Shown: positions 43,354 to 52,500, numbered from the stretch's first letter. The stretch: DNA of 64,000 nucleotides from Bacteroidales bacterium (GCA_024413595.1 JAKSUC010000003.1:12307-76306); one strand, 5' to 3'. Program-made: numbers and translations. Notes: generated from the sequence alone by a model not told the origin.

Positions 43354-44916
43354 ATGCGTTATCGAAAATTTAGTAAATCGCAACAATCTGTTATTCAAAA
43401 TATTAACAATAAACTTTCAGAACAAAACGAATTTATTTTTCCAGGAGGAAAAGTTGAAATGTATGAAAAACTTTTTCCTTTTTCAGATGATATATTTTTT
43501 GTTTTAGATAATAATTTAAGATTTGTTTTTGTAGGAAGTAAATTTTGTGAACTTCTTAATATCGAAAATGTATTGTTAGATAATACCCCAATAATGTGTT
43601 ATTTATCAACAGAGTCGTATATCGATTTAAAAAAAATCACCTCCCAAATCAGCGAAAAAGATGAAAATTATACAGAATTATCAGTACAATTATTAAATAA
43701 CGATAGGCAAATAGTACACGTAAAATTTAGATTAAAAAAAGTATTGTTTGAAGAAAAACATAAAACATTTTTTATGGGATTAATTCAAACAGTAAAACTA
43801 AAGCAAGCCGAATTAAATTCAGACAAAAATATTTATTTACAAGCACTAGAAGCAGGAAGTAGTTCCATAATGATAACCGATACATCAGGAATAATAGTTC
43901 ATGTAAATAAAGCATTATGTAAAAAAAGTGGTTATTTGTCAGAAGAACTTATAGGACACAAAGTAAGAAATTTTGGTTCAGGATTGATACCCAATGTAAC
44001 CGATTTGTGGATCACCACAAAAAATGGAAATGTTTGGCATGGAGAAGCCGAAAGTACAACAAAATCAGGAGAAAAATATTGGGAATTAATAACTGTTGCA
44101 CCATTATTTGATAGAGAAGGACAAATATCAAATTATGTGGCATTTAAAGAAGATATTACAACCTTAAAAGACAAATATTTATCACTAGAAAATTCAAGTA
44201 AAAACTTGTCAGAAAAAGTAGCCTTTCGTGATAAATTGTTTTCATTAATAAGTCATGATTTACGAAATAGTGTTGGTAATCTCAAGAATATCAGTATGAT
44301 ATTGAATAATGAAATAGAAGAACAAACCCCATCAACAGAATTAATTCAAAAATATTCTTCTCTTATATTTGATAGTAGTACAACAACTTATAGTATGTTA
44401 GAGAATTTATTATCATGGTCAAAAAGTCAGTTTATAAATTCAAAAACTAAATCAGAAGTTGTTGATATAGAAGATGTTATTAGACATAATATCGAAATGT
44501 TTAATAATCTTGCAGTTCGCAAAGAAATAACATTAGAATGTCAAATTGGAAATTTTACCGAAGTTTTTGCAGATTTGCAAGCTGTGAATTCGGTAGTAAG
44601 AAATTTATTAACCAATGCCATAAAATTTACTTATCCAAATGGAAAAATAGTAATATCAGTAGATGAATACGAACAAGAAGAAAACATGGCTTTGATATCT
44701 GTTGCAGATAATGGTATGGGAATGACCGAAGATCAAAAGATTCATCTATTTGAAAATAATCATCTTAACACAACAATGGGCACTTCCAACGAAAAAGGAA
44801 CAGGTTTAGGACTTATTCTATGTCGCGATTTAGTTGAAAAAAACGGAGGAACCATTTGGGTAGATTCAAATATTCCACAAGGTACAATATTCTATTTTAC
44901 GTTGCCTTTTGCATAG
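43354..44916 (+). CDS. PAS-domain sensor histidine kinase (orphan, no adjacent response regulator)
   Basis: 520 aa. PAS segments, H-box FSLISHDLRNS, N-box LLTNAIKFT, G boxes DNGMGM and GTGLGL. See the finding about a possible upstream membrane anchor. Confidence 0.85.
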   Translation: MRYRKFSKSQQSVIQNINNKLSEQNEFIFPGGKVEMYEKLFPFSDDIFFVLDNNLRFVFVGSKFCELLNIENVLLDNTPIMCYLSTESYIDLKKITSQISEKDENYTELSVQLLNNDRQIVHVKFRLKKVLFEEKHKTFFMGLIQTVKLKQAELNSDKNIYLQALEAGSSSIMITDTSGIIVHVNKALCKKSGYLSEELIGHKVRNFGSGLIPNVTDLWITTKNGNVWHGEAESTTKSGEKYWELITVAPLFDREGQISNYVAFKEDITTLKDKYLSLENSSKNLSEKVAFRDKLFSLISHDLRNSVGNLKNISMILNNEIEEQTPSTELIQKYSSLIFDSSTTTYSMLENLLSWSKSQFINSKTKSEVVDIEDVIRHNIEMFNNLAVRKEITLECQIGNFTEVFADLQAVNSVVRNLLTNAIKFTYPNGKIVISVDEYEQEENMALISVADNGMGMTEDQKIHLFENNHLNTTMGTSNEKGTGLGLILCRDLVEKNGGTIWVDSNIPQGTIFYFTLPFA

Positions 44917-45145: not shown

Positions 45146-47980
45146 ATGAAAATATTAAATATGAGATATTTAAAAACTGCATTACTAATTTTTATATGTT
45201 TGGGAACTTTAGATTCATTAGCCCAAATAAAGATGACCGGTAAAATTACAGATTCAAATAATGAACCTTTAATCGGAGCTATACTTTCAATTGATGGAAC
45301 AGAATTTGGCGGATTATCCGATTTGAATGGAAATTATCGGTTGAATGTTCCGCAAAAATATGAAAACGAGAAAATTGTAATTTCGTATGTTGGATATTCT
45401 AATGATACAATACCAGTAAAAGCAGGTAATCTTGATATTGTATTGCCAATTAAAGCTTTAGAACAACGAAATACAATAACGTATGTAACTACTCAAAAAA
45501 GATTGCAGACCAATTTGGAAGTACCTATCACATTGTCTGTTTTAGAAGATTCAAAACTTGATAAACTTATCATAAACGATCCTCAAGAATTAAGTCTTTT
45601 TACTCCAGGATATCACAATCAAACCCAATCTTGTGTATATTCAGTAAATGTGATTAGAGGAGTAGCTTCTGATGGATCAAATAGTTATTCTTTTTTTCAA
45701 CCAAGAATTTCTGTATTTTTAGATGGAGTTTCGGTAACTCACATGGGAACAGCAAGTTCTGATATTTTTGATATGCAACGTGCTGAAATTGTGAAAGGTC
45801 CACAAGGAACACTTTTTGGTAAAGGTGCAGAATTTGGAGCTGTTAGCTATGTTACAAACAAACCTATTGACAATTTTGAAGCAAATATTCAAATGAGTTA
45901 TGGTTCGTATAAACAGAAAATAGTTCAAGGAATGATTAACACTCCAATAAATGAGAAAATAGCTAATCGTTTTGCTTTTTATTATAATGAAAGAGATGGT
46001 TATAATACTAATCTTTATGATAATAGTGATTTAAGTGGTAAAGGAGCAATTTCAGTAAGAGATATTCTTAAATGGAAACCAAACGAAAATCTAACAATGC
46101 ACTTAAGTGCAGATTATGAGCATAATGACGAACCTTGTGTTTCTTATAAAGGTAATATAATAGGAACTTTAAATAATGAATTAGATATTTCACCATATAC
46201 ATCTGCATATTTTAACGAAGATAATATTTTTTCAAAACGAGATATGGGAGGAATTAATTTTATGATGGAACATAAAATTAATTCAAAGCTAAGTTATTCA
46301 AATACAACAGCTTTTAGAATATATCAACTTAAAGAACGTTATGATTTAGATGGAACATATCGTCCAATATTTAGTGCAGATGAAATACAAAAAGGACTAC
46401 AATTTAGCGAAGAAGTAAGATTTCACTACGACAATAATAATAATTTAAGTGCATTTGTAGGAGCAAGTTATATGTTTGATAGAAATAAACATACAATAGA
46501 AATGAATACCAATTTAAAATATTCATTTCAATATCTTGTACGTCCAACATTACAATCAATAATGAATTCATTACCCGATGAAATAATAAAAGGAGTTGAT
46601 GATGCTTTAGATCAAGTGATGAGTGGATATTACAAAATGTTACCACAATATGCAAATGCAATGATGTCGGTTGTTGACAAAGTAAAAGTTGTGATGTCAG
46701 AAAAAATAAAAACACAACTTGCAGACGAATATTCAAATATGATAAATCAATCACAATGGGAAATAACACCAGATATTTATGGTAAAACCACATCTATTGT
46801 TTATGACATTATGGTTGACGCATTAAAAGATGTGTTTGCAAGTGAACCATCAGCAGATGCTTTTACTCAATATATTGATCCAGTTACAGTAGTAGAAGGT
46901 CTTGGTTTACAGAGAGTATTTTCAAATCTTCAACAATATTCAAATCTTGAAATGAAAGATAATTATCAAGAAAACGAAACAGATGAAAATATTTATCATG
47001 AAGCTGATATTTTTGCAGATGCAACGTATAAAATTACAGATAATTTATCATTTACGTTAGGACTTCGTGGAACAATAGAACAACAACGAACTTCTTATTT
47101 ATCAACAAGTGACGAAGCTCCTCTTGTAGGTGCATTTGTTTATCATGGCACAAATGGCACAAATTATTGGTTACATGATTTAGAAATTTCTTGGGTAGGA
47201 CGTGCAGTTTTGAGTTATTTGTTTGTAAAAAATAATAATGCTTATATTTCATTTTCAAAAGGACGTCGTCCTGGATCTATTTATTATAATTTTAATATAA
47301 AAGAAGCAGTAAAACTTCAACCAGAAACTTCGTTAAATTATGAATTAGGATTTAAAGGAAGTCTTGTTAAAAACCACATAAACTATACAATGGCAGGTTA
47401 TTATTATGATTGGTTGCATTTTCAAAGTTCTGTATCAACAGCAGGAATAAATGGTATAAGAAAATATGTTAATACAGATAAAGGAAAGGCAAACGCAATG
47501 GGTTTTGAAGCATCTATTGAAACATATTTCAATAATTTTGCATTTTTTGCAGATTATTCTTACATAGATGCAAAATTTACAGATAAAGATTCTGATGATA
47601 AACCACAAGAACTTGCAGGTCATAGATTTAGAATGACACCACAAAATACATTAGATTTTGGTTTTGACATTTCTTATCCAATTTTAAATAAGTTTTTATT
47701 ATATTTTAGACCATCATATTCATGGATGTCTGATATGTATTTTTCAACCGATAATACCGAAGAATTATCGCAAAAAGCATATGGCATAGCAAACTTTTCA
47801 TTAGGAGTAAATTGGACATTAAACAGAGTAACATTTGATTTGAGTTTTTATGGCAAAAATGTTTTAGATGAACAATATATAATAGACGCAGGAAATATGG
47901 GTCAAATGTGGGGCTGTCCAACATTTATAGCAGGAGCTCCATCAATGTATGGAGTGTCTCTCAAATTAGGATTCAAATAA
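45146..47980 (+). CDS. TonB-dependent outer-membrane receptor with CarboxypepD_reg-like N-terminal domain
   Basis: 944 aa with signal peptide. GKITDSNNEPLIGAILSIDGT...NGNYRL. Plug region (VNVIRGVAS, ISVFLDGV, AEIVKGPQGTLFGKGA). Long barrel ending YGVSLKLGFK. Confidence 0.85.
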   Translation: MKILNMRYLKTALLIFICLGTLDSLAQIKMTGKITDSNNEPLIGAILSIDGTEFGGLSDLNGNYRLNVPQKYENEKIVISYVGYSNDTIPVKAGNLDIVLPIKALEQRNTITYVTTQKRLQTNLEVPITLSVLEDSKLDKLIINDPQELSLFTPGYHNQTQSCVYSVNVIRGVASDGSNSYSFFQPRISVFLDGVSVTHMGTASSDIFDMQRAEIVKGPQGTLFGKGAEFGAVSYVTNKPIDNFEANIQMSYGSYKQKIVQGMINTPINEKIANRFAFYYNERDGYNTNLYDNSDLSGKGAISVRDILKWKPNENLTMHLSADYEHNDEPCVSYKGNIIGTLNNELDISPYTSAYFNEDNIFSKRDMGGINFMMEHKINSKLSYSNTTAFRIYQLKERYDLDGTYRPIFSADEIQKGLQFSEEVRFHYDNNNNLSAFVGASYMFDRNKHTIEMNTNLKYSFQYLVRPTLQSIMNSLPDEIIKGVDDALDQVMSGYYKMLPQYANAMMSVVDKVKVVMSEKIKTQLADEYSNMINQSQWEITPDIYGKTTSIVYDIMVDALKDVFASEPSADAFTQYIDPVTVVEGLGLQRVFSNLQQYSNLEMKDNYQENETDENIYHEADIFADATYKITDNLSFTLGLRGTIEQQRTSYLSTSDEAPLVGAFVYHGTNGTNYWLHDLEISWVGRAVLSYLFVKNNNAYISFSKGRRPGSIYYNFNIKEAVKLQPETSLNYELGFKGSLVKNHINYTMAGYYYDWLHFQSSVSTAGINGIRKYVNTDKGKANAMGFEASIETYFNNFAFFADYSYIDAKFTDKDSDDKPQELAGHRFRMTPQNTLDFGFDISYPILNKFLLYFRPSYSWMSDMYFSTDNTEELSQKAYGIANFSLGVNWTLNRVTFDLSFYGKNVLDEQYIIDAGNMGQMWGCPTFIAGAPSMYGVSLKLGFK

Positions 47981-48036
47981 CAAAAAACATAAATTATCTT
48001 TTTTTTAAAGATAATCTATGAAAAAAATATACAAAA

Positions 48037-50250
48037 ATGAAGATTAAAACAGTAATATTCGTAATATTTATGATGCTTTTTTCAGTGTCTTGTGAATGGG
48101 ACGACGTGGACGAAGCTAATGAAAGAAATAATAGTACATTACCCAATGGTGATGATATAGAAATAACAGATTCATTACCAGAAATCAAAGTGGCAGTTGT
48201 ATTACCGTTGGATAATAGTTATCGTCCTCGTTTTGAGAGAATTGCAAAATGGGCATTAGATAATATTAAAATAGCAACCAAAGGAATAGAATTTAAAGTT
48301 TCGCCCACAGATTTGTCTGGTATAAAAATCAATATAGAATGGTTTGACGAAAATGTGATAGACGCTGAAGTTTTGGCAAAAGAATTATCATTACGACAAG
48401 ATATTTCTGCAATAATTGGACCTATGTATTCGTCTGATGCACAAATATTTGCTTTAGAATGTGCAAAAACAGAAATGAATATATTATTACCATGTACAAC
48501 ATCTTCAGAAGTTGTAAGAAAATTTTCAAATAAACCTTGGTTTTGGTCTTTTGCAGAAACTGATATTCGACAATGTCAAGTAATGTTAGAAATTGCTAAA
48601 AATTATTGTAATTGCAATAGTATTTCGTTAATAGCGTCAAACTCTTTTTATGGACAAACATTTATGAATTGGTTGCCATTTCAATGTCACGAAAATGGAT
48701 TAAAATTTATTCAAAGTGTTCCGTATGATGGAGATCTTGATAGAGCAACTGCTGAAAAGGTGATGGAACAATCAGTAGATGGACAAGTAATTTTATGTTC
48801 TCCAGGTGAAGTTAGTGATATTCTTACAATTCAAAATGCTGTTAAAAGTAAAAATCCTAAAGGAAAAGTAATTTTTAGTGATATAGCAATGGATCCATCA
48901 TTGCTTGATTATGGAACTCTTTTTGACAATTCGTTAGGAATTGGTATCACAGCAGATGAAAAATCTAATTTCTTAAATGAATATATTTCTAAATATGCAA
49001 CAGAACCAACTGAAGGAGAATTTCAATTTTATGACGCATTAGTTTTAATGTCGTTGGTTGCAGCAGACCTTTATAATCAAGGTTTTTTAGATGCAAAAAC
49101 TGAAAATATTAAAAACTTATCTATCGAAAATTTTTATAATAAAAAAGTTTCTGATGCATTAACAAGAATATTAAAACCAGAAACAATAGACGAATTATTT
49201 TTAACAAAGTGGGAAGATATAAAAAAAATAGTTCAAAATCAAGTTTATAGTATAAGAGGAGCAAGTGGACATCTTGATTTTGATAAACAAAACAATTCAA
49301 CCGTTGCACATTCAACATATCAATTGTGGACAATTAAAGATCGTGGATTTTCTACAATTAAAAGTATAGCCGAAACTCCAATGTCGATTGATGCTTGGGA
49401 ACAAGAAGTAACTAAAATTGAAGAAATTCCAACTTCTGATGTTGATATAACTTATCCAAGTCTTGATGATAAATGGGCACTTTTAATTTCAGGAAGTAAT
49501 CAATGGGTAGACTATCGTTATCAAGCAAATGTTTTGAATGTTTATAATCTTTTAAAAAAACAAGGATATCCTGACGATCACATTATTTTGATTATGGATG
49601 ATAATATTTCAAACAATCCAAACAATATTCATAAAGGAATGATTTTAAGTTATGATGGTGTAAATCTTTATAATAATGTTGAAGTAGATTATAAGTTATC
49701 ATCACTTTCAATATCTGATATTACAAAAATTCTTACAGGTCAAAATTCAGAGCAATTACCAAATGTAATTAATGCAGATAACGATGACAATATTTTTGTA
49801 TATTGGACAGGAAATGGAAGTGAAAACAAACTAAGTTTTGATAAATCATATTTAACAAATCAAGATTTTCTAAATCTTATGACAGAAATGAGTCAAGGTT
49901 CAAAAAAATATCGCAAAATGCTTTGGATGGTAGATGCGTCAAATGCTCAGTCTGTAACCCAAATTCCTGAAAATCAAAATATAGAAGGCGTTCTTTGTGT
50001 AAATTCATCATCAAATAAAGAAACATCTTTGGCAGATCAATGTGATTTTGATGAAACTATGGCAATATATCTATCAACACGTTTTTCAAAAATACTTGTT
50101 GAAGAACTTACAAAATCACCCAACGATACTTATTATAAAATTTATGAAACACTTGCCAAATATACCTCAGGTTCTCATGTAAATATTTCAAATTCAAAGA
50201 ATTTTGACAATTTAAAAAGTGGAACTATTAGTGAGTTTGTGAAATACTAA
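48037..50250 (+). CDS. Lipoprotein: PBP1/ANF-receptor-like ligand-binding domain fused to a legumain-like (peptidase C13 fold) domain lacking the catalytic His and Cys
   Basis: 737 aa with lipoprotein signal (LFSVSC), then acidic EWDDVDE. The N-terminal half shows KVAVVLPLDNS, AIIGPMYSSDAQIFALECA and FAETDIRQ (LivK/ANF-type pattern). The C-terminal half shows WALLISGSNQWVDYRYQANV...NIFVYWTGNGS...YRKMLWMVDASNAQS, colinear with legumain. Confidence 0.72.
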   Translation: MKIKTVIFVIFMMLFSVSCEWDDVDEANERNNSTLPNGDDIEITDSLPEIKVAVVLPLDNSYRPRFERIAKWALDNIKIATKGIEFKVSPTDLSGIKINIEWFDENVIDAEVLAKELSLRQDISAIIGPMYSSDAQIFALECAKTEMNILLPCTTSSEVVRKFSNKPWFWSFAETDIRQCQVMLEIAKNYCNCNSISLIASNSFYGQTFMNWLPFQCHENGLKFIQSVPYDGDLDRATAEKVMEQSVDGQVILCSPGEVSDILTIQNAVKSKNPKGKVIFSDIAMDPSLLDYGTLFDNSLGIGITADEKSNFLNEYISKYATEPTEGEFQFYDALVLMSLVAADLYNQGFLDAKTENIKNLSIENFYNKKVSDALTRILKPETIDELFLTKWEDIKKIVQNQVYSIRGASGHLDFDKQNNSTVAHSTYQLWTIKDRGFSTIKSIAETPMSIDAWEQEVTKIEEIPTSDVDITYPSLDDKWALLISGSNQWVDYRYQANVLNVYNLLKKQGYPDDHIILIMDDNISNNPNNIHKGMILSYDGVNLYNNVEVDYKLSSLSISDITKILTGQNSEQLPNVINADNDDNIFVYWTGNGSENKLSFDKSYLTNQDFLNLMTEMSQGSKKYRKMLWMVDASNAQSVTQIPENQNIEGVLCVNSSSNKETSLADQCDFDETMAIYLSTRFSKILVEELTKSPNDTYYKIYETLAKYTSGSHVNISNSKNFDNLKSGTISEFVKY
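49468..50247 (+). other. Legumain-like (clan CD, C13-type) domain with substituted catalytic dyad
   Basis: Alignment by eye to human legumain. DHVFIYFTDHGS aligns with DNIFVYWTGNGS (His position is the Asn codon 49813-49815). YRKMVFYIEACESGS aligns with YRKMLWMVDASNAQS (Cys position is the Ser codon 49939-49941). Spacing is 42 versus 41 residues. Confidence 0.7.
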
Positions 50251-50337: not shown

Positions 50338-50384
50338 GAGAAATCTCGGGTTTGATTAATATTCTTATCGGTCCGAGATTTCTC
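50338..50384. terminator. Strong hairpin between convergent genes (possible bidirectional terminator or structured element)
   Basis: gagaaatctcgg (50338-50349) / ccgagatttctc (50373-50384), perfect 12-bp arms with a 23-nt loop. There is no clean U-run, so the terminator role is uncertain. Confidence 0.45.
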
Positions 50385-50444
50385 TTAATTCTTAATTGCC
50401 AAATATTTGTTCCGCTCTTAATTCTTAATTCTTAATTGTTAATT
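50384..50444. repeat. Two blocks of tandem heptamers CTTAATT (x2 and x3 plus GTTAATT)
   Basis: cttaatt at 50384-50390 and 50391-50397. cttaatt at 50417-50423, 50424-50430 and 50431-50437, then gttaatt at 50438-50444, overlapping the stop codon of the flavodoxin-like gene. Confidence 0.8.
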
Positions 50445-51146
50445 ATTTATGCTTTTCCCTAATTCGTAAGCCATTGTCATATATTCAGTACCAGCAACAG
50501 CGCCAGGACGTCCCATAGAAATTGCGGAAATATAACCGCGTTCTGTAGGATTTTCTGTACACATAACAAAACCTCTAAATCCGTTAATACACCATTCGGC
50601 AGTTTCGGTGCTATTTTGGGCACAAGCTGTTATGTAGTAATATTCTTTGTTTCCCATTTTAGGATCGCCCCAAGCAAGAAAAGTTGCATCAATAAAAGTT
50701 TTCATACGGTCGTTTACATTCATGTAATATGTTGGAGAGGCAAGACAAACAACGTCGGCGTCTAAAAATTTGTTGATAATTCTGCCAATTTCGCTTGAGT
50801 CGCGGTTAATTTCTTTAGGTTGATTAGCACCTTGTTCTGAAAGAAAATCAAGATTGTAATCTGCCAAGAAAATCTTTTCTACATTGCCACCAGCTTCGGT
50901 AGCACCTTTAACAAATTCATCGCAAAGTAAGTCGGTATTTCCGCCTTTACGAGGACTTGAACTGATAACAAGAACACGTTTTCCTTCTTTTTTGTTGGTG
51001 GTAGTTTTGCTAATCTTGATACCAGATTGAACAGCTAACGAAGCTGTAATAGATTTACTATCAACATTTTGAGCGTTTTCGCAATTGTTTGCGCATGATG
51101 CCAACAATAATGATGCTGACATAACTAAAAAGAAAATTTTTTTCAT
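50439..51146 (-). CDS. Flavodoxin-like/NADPH-dependent FMN reductase-fold protein with lipoprotein signal peptide
   Basis: 235 aa. N-terminus MKKIFFLVMSASLLLASC (lipobox). KRVLVISSSPRKGGNTDLL and LASPTYYMNV are typical of the FMN_red/flavodoxin_2 fold. Confidence 0.7.
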   Translation of the reverse strand: MKKIFFLVMSASLLLASCANNCENAQNVDSKSITASLAVQSGIKISKTTTNKKEGKRVLVISSSPRKGGNTDLLCDEFVKGATEAGGNVEKIFLADYNLDFLSEQGANQPKEINRDSSEIGRIINKFLDADVVCLASPTYYMNVNDRMKTFIDATFLAWGDPKMGNKEYYYITACAQNSTETAEWCINGFRGFVMCTENPTERGYISAISMGRPGAVAGTEYMTMAYELGKSINN

Positions 51147-51199: not shown

Positions 51200-52168
51200 T
51201 TATTTTCTCCTCAAAAAATTAAGTCTTTGTTGATAAGCTCTTAAATATATTTTTTGACATTTTTTTGATAGTAAAGAGTTATTAATAATAGTCTCAATTT
51301 CAATGTAATCTAATAAAAAAGGTTGTATTATTTTGTTGATTTGTTTGTCTGTTAGTCCACATTCTTTTCCAAATATTATGAAATCTTCGGCTGTACTATG
51401 TCCTGTTTTTTCAAAATATTCAGAATGTATAGTTGTTCCAAGACCATTATTCATTGCAAAATCACTATCTTTAATATGCAAAGAAGTACAAAGTAAATCG
51501 TAGGCAGGTGAAAGCGTAATCGAACCGTCTAATTTTCTGATAATTGAAAAATTCTTAGAATGAGCATCTCCATTTGAGAATAAATAATTGAAAATTATAA
51601 TTGATAAAAATTTTTGAATTTCAAAATGCCAAGTAGGTAATATATTTTTCAAACATTTTGCCATATCTAAATATGAACCTTGGTATTTAAAATCACTACC
51701 ATCTTTTTGAGCTGTTTTTCCTAATAAAGAACAAATATCTTCTTGCTGTAATTTTATAAAATCTCCGTTTGTATTATTTTGAATATCAAAACGTTTTACA
51801 ATTAATGCTGGTCTTTTGTCTTGTAATCGAATTAAAGCACAAGGTGCAGTTTTTATACCGAAAATCTTATTAGCAATTTGCATTGTAAGATATTCATTTA
51901 TAGACATTTCATCTCTATATGCTAAATAATCATTTATTGGAGTTGGTTTGATAATAAACGTACTTTGTTCTCCATCTTTAGCAAGTCTCAAAATACCATT
52001 GTCTTCAACTGCAAACATTTTTTCTTGAACACCAGAAATTGAAAAATGTTTTACATGTTGATTAAAATCATTGGGTTTAAAACAGATTTCAGTGTCTGCA
52101 CTTACAAATTTACCATTGAATAAATTTTGTAATTCATCCTTGCTAAATTCTATATGTTCAAGTTTCAT
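51200..52168 (-). CDS. hipT: HipT-like toxin kinase (HipA kinase core lacking N-subdomain 1)
   Basis: 322 aa. FSISGVQEKMF (Gly-rich loop with Ser-Ile-Ser), GNGDAHSKNFSII (catalytic loop), SPAYDLL (Mg-binding Asp). Begins where the preceding 108-aa ORF's homology to HipA ends. Confidence 0.85.
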   Translation of the reverse strand: MKLEHIEFSKDELQNLFNGKFVSADTEICFKPNDFNQHVKHFSISGVQEKMFAVEDNGILRLAKDGEQSTFIIKPTPINDYLAYRDEMSINEYLTMQIANKIFGIKTAPCALIRLQDKRPALIVKRFDIQNNTNGDFIKLQQEDICSLLGKTAQKDGSDFKYQGSYLDMAKCLKNILPTWHFEIQKFLSIIIFNYLFSNGDAHSKNFSIIRKLDGSITLSPAYDLLCTSLHIKDSDFAMNNGLGTTIHSEYFEKTGHSTAEDFIIFGKECGLTDKQINKIIQPFLLDYIEIETIINNSLLSKKCQKIYLRAYQQRLNFLRRK

Positions 52169-52173
52169 AATTA

Positions 52174-52500
52174 TTATTCATTTATAGGAGTAAACGTCAG
52201 AAAACCAATAGTATCATATTGTGCAGTGGCTAGTAAAAGTCCAAAATAATCATCGGGTTCAATGTGAAGAACTTTACATTGTGCTTTTTTGTTACCACCT
52301 TCGCTCAATAAATTAAAAAAACAGGGAAAAAGAACGTCGCAAGTGTATATTTTGTCGCTTAAAGGTAAAGTAAGCGATACAGGCAAAGCGTTCTTTTTTT
52401 CGAGATGCTCTTTGCAATATTCAAAAGTGTACATATTACTTGAAACTTCTTTTAAAATTCCAGCTTTTTGTTTGTTGATATTTACAAATGCTTGTCTCAT
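52174..52500 (-). CDS. hipS: HipS-like protein (stand-alone HipA N-terminal subdomain 1; antitoxin in HipBST systems)
   Basis: 108 aa. NINKQKAGIL...FEY...LPVSLTLPL...FFNLLSEG...DYFGLL...DTIGFLTF is colinear with residues 1-110 of E. coli HipA (NNQRVGEL...FKY...PLSLSLPL...FFDNLLPD...FDLL...DSVGAVTL). Confidence 0.8.
   Translation of the reverse strand: MRQAFVNINKQKAGILKEVSSNMYTFEYCKEHLEKKNALPVSLTLPLSDKIYTCDVLFPCFFNLLSEGGNKKAQCKVLHIEPDDYFGLLLATAQYDTIGFLTFTPINE

Follow-up and report, generated by a model that had tools for sequence, protein, structure and literature searches.

The locus discussed here raises the question whether a TonB-dependent transporter (TBDT) can work with a surface lipoprotein of a kind not yet described as a partner of such transporters. 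In a stretch of 64,000 nucleotides from a Bacteroidales bacterium (GCA_024413595.1 JAKSUC010000003.1:12307-76306), called the window in the following, a TBDT gene (45146..47980, + strand, 944 aa) is followed by a lipoprotein gene (48037..50250, + strand, 737 aa). The lipoprotein joins a type-1 periplasmic-binding-protein (PBP1) domain, also called a Venus flytrap, to a Peptidase_C13 domain of the legumain and GPI8 type that is predicted to be catalytically dead. Most likely the two genes encode a nutrient-capture pair not described before, which arose when a former surface protease was recruited. As to its function, we lean towards a self-contained uptake unit of a TBDT and a surface-exposed lipoprotein (TBDT-SLP), in which the lipoprotein would hand over an amino-acid-like or peptide-like ligand to the TBDT. 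A fuller proposal, which we put forward more tentatively, is that of a new TBDT-SLP class with a Venus flytrap and an exapted dead legumain on a siderophore-class barrel with a helical loop 5, importing an amino-acid-derived or peptide nutrient.

A preliminary description of the window had reported the two genes on the same strand and 56 nt apart, and both are present as it placed them. The TBDT gene is supported by its open reading frame (ORF), by Pfam, by an AlphaFold2 (AF2) model, by Foldseek and by orthologues that adjoin the same partner elsewhere. Both genes are real and not chance ORFs, because the two proteins have orthologues at 56-66% identity and long ORFs are improbable at a G+C content of 29%, which is that of the window. 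The intergenic spacer (47981..48036, + strand) is AT-rich, and a terminator scan of its 56 nt predicted none. The two genes are probably co-transcribed.

The C-terminal part of the lipoprotein had been described as similar to eukaryotic legumain. The homology and the fold both stand, but the catalytic residues are missing, which the preliminary description had not noticed. The domain (aa 478-737, 49468..50247, + strand) matches Pfam Peptidase_C13 over aa 479-724 with 142.7 bits (cut-off 22.8, E 2e-41), its sequence matches in the PDB are GPI8 and legumain with E-values of 1e-27 to 1e-26, and a Foldseek comparison with human legumain gives TM-scores of 0.87-0.91, normalised to the target, at a root-mean-square deviation of about 2 Å. 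In the HMMER alignment to GPI8, however, the catalytic His motif YMTGHG is replaced by YWTGNG and the catalytic Cys motif MIDTCQA by MVDASNA. We take the residues Asn42, His148, Glu187, Cys189 and Asp231 of human legumain to correspond to the following positions of the C13 domain. The Asn is Asp492 (49510..49512), the catalytic His, found in the 'TGHG' of GPI8, is Asn593 (49813..49815), the catalytic Cys is Ser635 (49939..49941) and the Asp of the S1 site is Thr681 (50077..50079), all on the + strand, while Asp633, near Ser635, stands for the Glu. The domain is thus like legumain and the GPI8 transamidase (MEROPS C13) in sequence and fold, and unlike them in that the dyad His/Cys has become Asn/Ser, the residues at the S1 and oxyanion sites have changed and the protein is a bacterial lipoprotein. 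It also differs from legumain in having no C-terminal LSAM prodomain, and an N-terminal PBP1 domain instead.

These replacements separate two groups of homologues. We call clade A the 8 closest relatives of the lipoprotein (58-100% identity; 8 sequence clusters from 7 loci), and clade B the 13 more distant of the 21 homologues (28-33% identity), which have kept FWSGHG and E-x-C. Asn593 and Ser635 are found in the window lipoprotein and in all 8 members of clade A. In the alignment of the 21 sequences, 14 positions are fixed differently in the two clades, 5 of which belong to the C13 active site (N492D, H593N, E633D, C635S and S637A); at position 681, clade A has Thr where clade B has Asn or Asp. 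Judged by its residues, the domain is a C13 homologue but a pseudo-peptidase, not an active C13 peptidase. Members of clade A share on average 59% identity in the C13 domain and 67% in the flytrap domain. Since the C13 domain is conserved although it is dead, it has probably been retained for a non-catalytic role.

The second line of evidence is the gene pairing itself. The preliminary description had likened the gene order to that of known transporter and lipoprotein pairs, and the two genes do form a tight pair in 7 loci, but the pairing is not general to the PBP1-C13 architecture. The 7 loci of clade A are the window, L001, L004 (on the same contig as L006), L005, L090, L091 and L092, and every one of them has an orthologous TBDT gene immediately 5' of the lipoprotein gene, on the same strand and with a gap of 18-69 nt. 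The TBDT gene is cut by the contig end in L004 and L005, and the upstream flanks were compared in the five complete loci. Identity in these ranges from 53 to 66% among the TBDTs and from 54 to 66% among the lipoproteins; the window has a G+C content of 0.29, and the other paired loci have 0.47-0.51. The window has a PAS kinase upstream of the pair and a flavin mononucleotide (FMN) reductase downstream, L001 an ABC exporter-type gene upstream and a gene of glycoside hydrolase family 9 downstream, L092 an ABC exporter-type gene upstream and the contig end downstream, L091 two ClpP genes upstream and the contig end downstream, and L090 a rhodanese upstream and LrgAB downstream. Because the flanks differ between loci, the conserved unit is exactly the TBDT and lipoprotein genes. 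In L001 and L091 the upstream gene is set off from the pair by a hairpin with a T-run behind it.

Two of the upstream genes were considered as further parts of the system. The PAS histidine kinase of the window (43354-44916, + strand), whose membership had been left open in the preliminary description, is rejected, as none of the six other loci has it. It is a cytoplasmic protein that has no receiver domain, and no response-regulator gene adjoins it. The ABC gene of L001 and L092 is rejected as an inner-membrane partner, being an exporter-type fused protein that occurs in these two closely syntenic loci only, with a terminator hairpin in between.

Clade A consists of uncultured Bacteroidales and is rare. 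No additional members were found in JGI metagenome contigs, and a profile re-search of a set of 5.8 billion proteins returned the same 21 proteins, with none added. With an E-value limit of 1e-30, an exhaustive HMMER search of 1.84 billion cluster representatives gave 209 proteins, or about 200 clusters at 50% identity; clade A is represented there by one protein (58% identity), and the match after it has 37%. When 169 sequences, namely the 21 homologues and 148 representatives, are aligned to the family profile, 153 of them keep both His and Cys, the 8 of clade A have D/N/S, and a few singletons carry other substitutions. When one genome was scanned for each GTDB species, 377 stretches were confirmed, mostly titled Bacteroidales and including Phocaeicola sartorii DSM 21941, Paraprevotella xylaniphila YIT 11841, Phocaeicola plebeius and Alistipes ihumii. 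Several of these stretches are titled as unrelated taxa (Fibrobacter, Firmicutes and an archaeon), which probably reflects the binning of metagenome-assembled genomes.

About 95% of the family retains the catalytic dyad. The neighbourhoods of 84 loci were analysed, 78 of them belonging to clade B. W[ST]GHG is kept in all of these 78, and in none of them is a TBDT the adjoining gene. TBDT pairing is therefore restricted to one small derived clade and is not a property of the PBP1-C13 architecture. The clade-B lipoproteins have the same architecture as the window protein, with a lipobox and acidic residues after the Cys, at 28-37% identity, but differ from it in the kept dyad and the missing TBDT neighbour. 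Going by their motifs, they are apparently active proteases at the surface. A conserved protein of about 350 aa is encoded directly 5' of them, on the same strand, in 62 clade-B loci, with a recognisable lipobox in 38 of the 62; it has no Pfam family apart from one weak Bmp match, and it was found neither in the window nor in any clade-A locus. A lipase-like (PF03583) lipoprotein lies 3' in 21 clade-B loci, and MACPF proteins are encoded two to three genes 5' in some. Among our loci those of clade B carry the numbers L002, L003 and L007-L084, for instance L073:5878-8037 from Paraprevotella xylaniphila and L071:5851-8019 from Phocaeicola sartorii.

A neighbour-joining tree with midpoint rooting shows clade A as monophyletic, on a long stem and nested among clade B. 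This is weak evidence that the paired lipoproteins are nested within active lineages. Independently of the tree, the loss of the dyad is the derived state, because His and Cys are shared with the eukaryotic C13 enzymes.

What could such a lipoprotein bind? The proposed PBP1 or ANF-receptor domain in its N-terminal half is found by Pfam, by a profile search and by Foldseek alike (aa 49-445, 48181..49371, + strand). Pfam ANF_receptor matches aa 89-434 with 54.6 bits (cut-off 25.4, E 1.2e-14), covering profile positions 16-351 of 353, and Peripla_BP_6 reaches 26.4 bits, below its cut-off of 31.7. Searching the PDB with the single flytrap sequence gave chance matches only, and a profile was required. 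A profile of 43 flytrap sequences matches a branched-chain-amino-acid-binding protein of Thermotoga (3td9, E 1e-13) and another binding protein for these amino acids (4gnr, E 5e-10), as well as T1R3, metabotropic glutamate receptors (mGluR8 among them) and CaSR. Foldseek likewise places the domain with LivK-type binding proteins (3td9, TM-score 0.75; 4mlc, TM-score 0.78). The superfamily of LIVBP and class-C G-protein-coupled receptor (GPCR) flytraps typically binds amino acids. The residues Ser132/133 (GPMYSS), Thr155/Ser156 (CTTSSE), Tyr205 (YGQTF) and Asp282 (FSDIAM) are invariant in clade A, and presumably correspond to the amino-acid contacts of LivJ and LivK, that is, the beta3-loop Ser, the beta4-loop Thr, the Tyr and the acidic residue. 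The domain is thus like LivJ, LivK and the class-C GPCR flytraps in fold and superfamily and in holding Ser, Thr/Ser, Tyr and Asp at the contact positions. Unlike LivJ and LivK it is fused to a C13 domain, anchored by lipid and not placed beside an ABC importer; in all 7 loci the pair lacks an adjoining gene for an importer permease or ATPase. These observations support, short of proof, an amino-acid-like or peptide-like ligand.

For such a ligand to be captured outside the cell, the lipoprotein would have to reach the cell surface. Its signal peptide and lipobox (aa 1-19, 48037..48093, + strand, from the translation) read MKIKTVIFVIFMMLFSVSC, followed by EWDDVDE, and the lipobox Cys19 (48091-48093) is invariant in the 21 homologues. 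The acidic stretch after the Cys, which had been likened to the surface-export signal of Bacteroidota, is indeed there and conserved in clade A, where S18-C19-E20-x-D22-D23-V24 is invariant and the residues after the Cys follow EWDDV(D/E). This export-signal-like motif EWDDVDE (aa 20-26) and a disordered tether extending to aa 48 occupy 48094..48180 (+ strand). Published definitions of the lipoprotein export signal are CS(D/E)2, K-(D/E)2 and Q-A-(D/E)2 (PMC6222051). In C-E-W-D-D-V-D-E the acidic residues stand at +2, +4, +5, +7 and +8, and the Q-A-(D/E)2 spacing fits. In clade B, at least 2 D/E are found within six residues after the Cys in 61 of 75 proteins. Surface exposure of the lipoprotein is thus plausible on its sequence. 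The AF2 model (pLDDT 86.5, pTM 0.83) has two folded domains, and aa 11-42 are disordered with pLDDT below 50. The pTM of 0.83 indicates a defined packing of the two modelled domains against each other.

The transporter shows the usual domain order, but not that of a SusC. Its signal peptide (aa 1-26, 45146..45223, + strand) is read from the translation, with a presumed cleavage between ...SLA and Q; the AQ motif at this site is kept in the family consensus. An N-terminal carboxypeptidase-regulatory-like beta-sandwich (aa 30-96, 45233..45433, + strand) matches CarbopepD_reg_2 over aa 31-96 (PF13715, E 2.5e-13), and the AF2 model has beta strands at 27-90. The Plug domain (PF07715) covers aa 124-231 (45515..45838, + strand) and TonB_dep_Rec_b-barrel aa 606-906, both above their cut-offs. 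Ahead of the plug, the stretch NTITYVTTQKR (aa 108-118), with Q117 and K118 invariant in 69 homologues, is a putative TonB box. The model (pLDDT 87) comprises the beta-sandwich, the plug and, according to DSSP, a barrel of 22 strands (aa 245-943, 45878..47974, + strand), in which short turns alternate with long loops. The nearest solved structure in Foldseek is FyuA (TM-score 0.89 normalised to the target, E 1e-53), and FoxA, FptA, PiuA, FhuE, FhuA and PqqU are also close. Against the siderophore-receptor model TIGR01783 the TBDT scores 129.4 bits with a cut-off of 223.5, so that it resembles this class without being a member, and it stays below the cut-offs of TIGR04056 for SusC/RagA (52.4 of 368.25 bits) and TIGR01779 for BtuB (41.6 of 599.7 bits). 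As modelled, the TBDT is intact and has a fold of the siderophore or small-molecule class, not that of SusC.

Between strands 9 and 10 the AF2 model carries an all-helical insertion of about 150 aa (aa 457-598, 46514..46939, + strand), which the alternation of short turns and long loops assigns to extracellular loop 5. Its helices span 457-498, 500-533 and 544-566, with some short helices in addition, at pLDDT 84-92, and no relative of it was found in Pfam or the PDB. The solved TBDTs matched by Foldseek have at most 772 aa, and we know of no solved TBDT with a helical loop-5 domain of about 150 aa. The insertion is common to a whole family of about 940-aa TBDTs (the relatives P0030-P0119 among them), including members without a partner, and so marks an abundant, uncharacterised TBDT family. 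Seven orthologues of the window TBDT have 56-66% identity, and the next relatives, at about 42%, belong to this large family of Bacteroidales. A TPR-SpoIIE (PP2C phosphatase) gene lies directly 5' of a TBDT gene of about 40% identity on two independent contigs (L088:4305-7001 and L093:1344-5861), which is a possible regulatory link of partner-less TBDTs.

Comparison with known systems shows which parts of the pair are familiar. The pair is like XusA/XusB of Bacteroides thetaiotaomicron in its non-SusC, siderophore-class TBDT of 22 strands, in the N-terminal carboxypeptidase-like domain and in the lipoprotein gene as partner. XusA has an N-terminal carboxypeptidase-regulatory-like domain, and XusB is a surface-exposed lipoprotein which binds a xenosiderophore and sits on the XusA barrel as a lid (PMC13142918). 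Unlike XusB, which is a seven-bladed beta-propeller (DUF4374), the partner here consists of a Venus flytrap and a dead legumain. The beta9-beta10 loop of XusA is short and disordered, whereas the same loop carries the helical domain here; in XusA it is the sole extracellular loop that does not touch the lid, and it has been discussed as a possible lateral gate (PMC13142918). The ligand of XusAB is a siderophore, whereas nothing points to a siderophore as ligand of our pair. The gene order also resembles BtuB/BtuG of Bacteroides, a TBDT and its cognate surface lipoprotein that form a capture pair for a small nutrient, vitamin B12 (PMC10404256, PMC6143338). It differs from them in a TBDT far below the BtuB cut-off, in the lack of a cobalamin riboswitch and in a partner fold of PBP1 and C13. 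BtuG, like XusB, is a beta-propeller. With SusC/SusD and RagA/RagB the pair shares the order of TBDT and then lipoprotein gene, the N-terminal carboxypeptidase-like domain and possibly the 'pedal-bin' logic of a lid. Unlike in these, the partner has no SusD-family Pfam match and the nearest solved barrels are siderophore receptors. The earlier statement that the partner is not a SusD holds, since its only Pfam matches are ANF_receptor, Peripla_BP_6 and Peptidase_C13, and it is also unlike BtuG and HmuY.

The model that we favour, of capture at the surface and capping of the barrel, is drawn by analogy with XusAB and BtuBG, and we infer in it the surface exposure, the physical complex, its orientation, the direction of transport and the class of ligand. 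The lipoprotein would be lipidated at Cys19, flipped to the cell surface by means of its acidic motif and held there on a tether of about 30 residues. A small amino-acid-like or peptide-like ligand might then be captured in the cleft of the LIVBP-type flytrap. The legumain-fold domain would not cleave anything, but may serve as a rigidly packed scaffold, as a docking surface or as a second binding surface. Once loaded, the lipoprotein would pass the ligand to the siderophore-class, 22-strand TBDT, and TonB energy would bring it into the periplasm. In evolutionary terms, an active PBP1-C13 surface protease of a widespread family may have been placed 3' of a formerly partner-less TBDT and have lost its catalytic machinery.

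Several observations weigh against this model. Some flytrap contact positions vary in clade B, and as the beta3-loop serines are not constant in the wider family, it is not certain that the domain binds an amino acid. The C-E-W-D-D motif differs from the tested CS(D/E)2. On the side of the transporter, the three closest non-orthologous TBDTs that were checked (about 40% identity) have no downstream lipoprotein gene, and an alignment with the wider family contains no clade-A-specific TBDT insertion or deletion of at least 4 aa, by which we rejected clade-specific loop insertions as a docking signature. As these relatives have no partner and there are no clade-specific loop changes, the TBDT may not need a lid. 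P0272 (L094:8001-10169, 27% identity) has an independently dead dyad, with D/N/T at the positions of Asn42, His148 and Cys189, and its gene, which has the contig end close by on its 3' side, is not preceded by a TBDT gene. Because this protein is dead yet unpaired, loss of catalysis is not tied to TBDT pairing, and it weakens the hypothesis that the loss of the dyad always accompanies the pairing. No regulator, riboswitch or metabolic gene that could hint at the ligand was found at the examined loci, and the significance of the pair is limited by this lack of a ligand clue as well as by the rarity of clade A.

The same evidence has to be read with other explanations in mind. The lipoprotein might be periplasmic, located in the inner leaflet of the outer membrane and receiving the ligand after its import by the TBDT, as FhuD or BtuF would. 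PBP1 and LIVBP domains are classically periplasmic partners of transporters, and the relatives of the TBDT have no surface partner. Such a shuttle is, however, hard to reconcile with the strongly acidic and invariant motif after the Cys, typical of exported Bacteroidota lipoproteins, and with a long disordered tether as is typical of surface lipoproteins; moreover, there are no adjacent genes for an ABC importer permease or ATPase, the ABC gene of L001 and L092 being of the exporter type and behind a terminator. We consider a periplasmic location unlikely. It is also conceivable that the two genes share an operon without cooperation of their products, the TBDT working alone and the lipoprotein serving as a pseudo-protease at the surface for sensing, inhibition or adhesion, for instance as a decoy or regulator of active paralogues. 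The absence of partner-specific adaptation in the TBDT would suit this, as would the second dead-dyad lineage without an upstream TBDT and the different context of the active relatives, with their lipoprotein of about 350 aa, MACPF proteins and lipase-like lipoprotein. Yet the tight linkage has been held through 34-47% sequence divergence and a complete reshuffling of the flanks, and the pairing is seen in every clade-A member with upstream DNA, which makes two independently working proteins improbable to us.

Two further possibilities concern the activity of the individual proteins. The C13 domain might still be a hydrolase with Ser635 as nucleophile, which trims a peptide at the surface before import as in utilisomes. 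It is true that Cys to Ser is a conservative change for a nucleophile and that the domain is well conserved, but the general-base His is Asn in 8 of 8 members, the equivalents of Asn42, Glu187 and Asp231 are changed too, and the alignment offers no alternative His near these motifs. A remaining Ser hydrolase activity therefore seems very unlikely. The TBDT, for its part, might act outwards and aid the secretion or display of the lipoprotein. Myxococcus Oar is a TBDT that works outwards, and the N-terminal carboxypeptidase-regulatory-like domain is found in Oar-type receptors as well. The same domain is nevertheless common in importing TBDTs of Bacteroidota such as XusA, Pfam shows no Oar-like barrel match, and the lipoprotein has a lipobox and an export-signal route of its own, so that we give this last explanation hardly any weight.

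Bacteroidota acquire scarce nutrients mainly through complexes of a TBDT and a surface lipoprotein. To our knowledge, the characterised lipoprotein partners are SusD-like, beta-propellers (BtuG and XusB) or HmuY-type. Such pairs as a class are known, and what is new here is the partner architecture of flytrap and C13, its pseudo-enzyme nature and the helical domain in loop 5. The view that the lipoprotein family has no assigned function is upheld, as no NCBIfam model matches the lipoprotein, and in our full-text literature searches neither bacterial PBP1-C13 proteins nor a TBDT partner so built were the subject of any paper. If the proposed pair is true, the structural repertoire of TBDT-SLP partners becomes wider by a flytrap with a pseudo-legumain. 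A domain family of inner-membrane ABC import and of eukaryotic receptors would then enter outer-membrane capture, and a surface protease would have turned into a transporter accessory through the loss of its active site. The analysis also exposes a large unstudied family of apparently active surface proteases of the legumain type in gut Bacteroidales, including cultured species from the human and mouse gut. With active relatives in one gene context and dead ones in another, the family can be seen as a natural experiment in pseudo-enzyme evolution.

The regulation of the pair was searched for in the window and the six related loci. Rfam gave nothing there at the gathering threshold and, at E<=1, nothing in the region upstream of the pair, including no cobalamin riboswitch. 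A search of the five TBDT upstream regions for a shared regulatory motif yielded only T-rich low-complexity words, and scans for sigma-70 promoters and terminators remained at background level. Downstream of the pair, between the convergent lipoprotein and FMN-reductase genes, we read from the sequence an inverted repeat (50338..50384) with 12-bp arms, GAGAAATCTCGG and CCGAGATTTCTC, and a loop of 23 nt. It is a possible transcription end, and it was not called by the terminator scan because of the length of its loop. Short 'TTAATTCTTAAT' repeats follow it at 50385-50440.

The convergent neighbour encodes an FMN-reductase or flavodoxin-like protein with a lipoprotein-like N-terminus (50439-51146, - strand). 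A similar gene is present two genes 3' of the pair in L004 (5295-5996, - strand) and absent from L001 and L090, and this shared neighbourhood of the window and L004 is residual synteny only. Further along the - strand of the window lies a split HipA-like kinase, with a Couple_hipA ORF (HipA N-terminal, 108 aa, 52174-52500) 5 nt upstream of a HipA_C ORF (322 aa, 51200-52168). The window also contains genes for glycoside hydrolases (GH13, GH77 with the carbohydrate-binding module CBM20, and a GH31-like protein), a hybrid two-component system, RND efflux and MetE, and its genes are those of a free-living glycan degrader.

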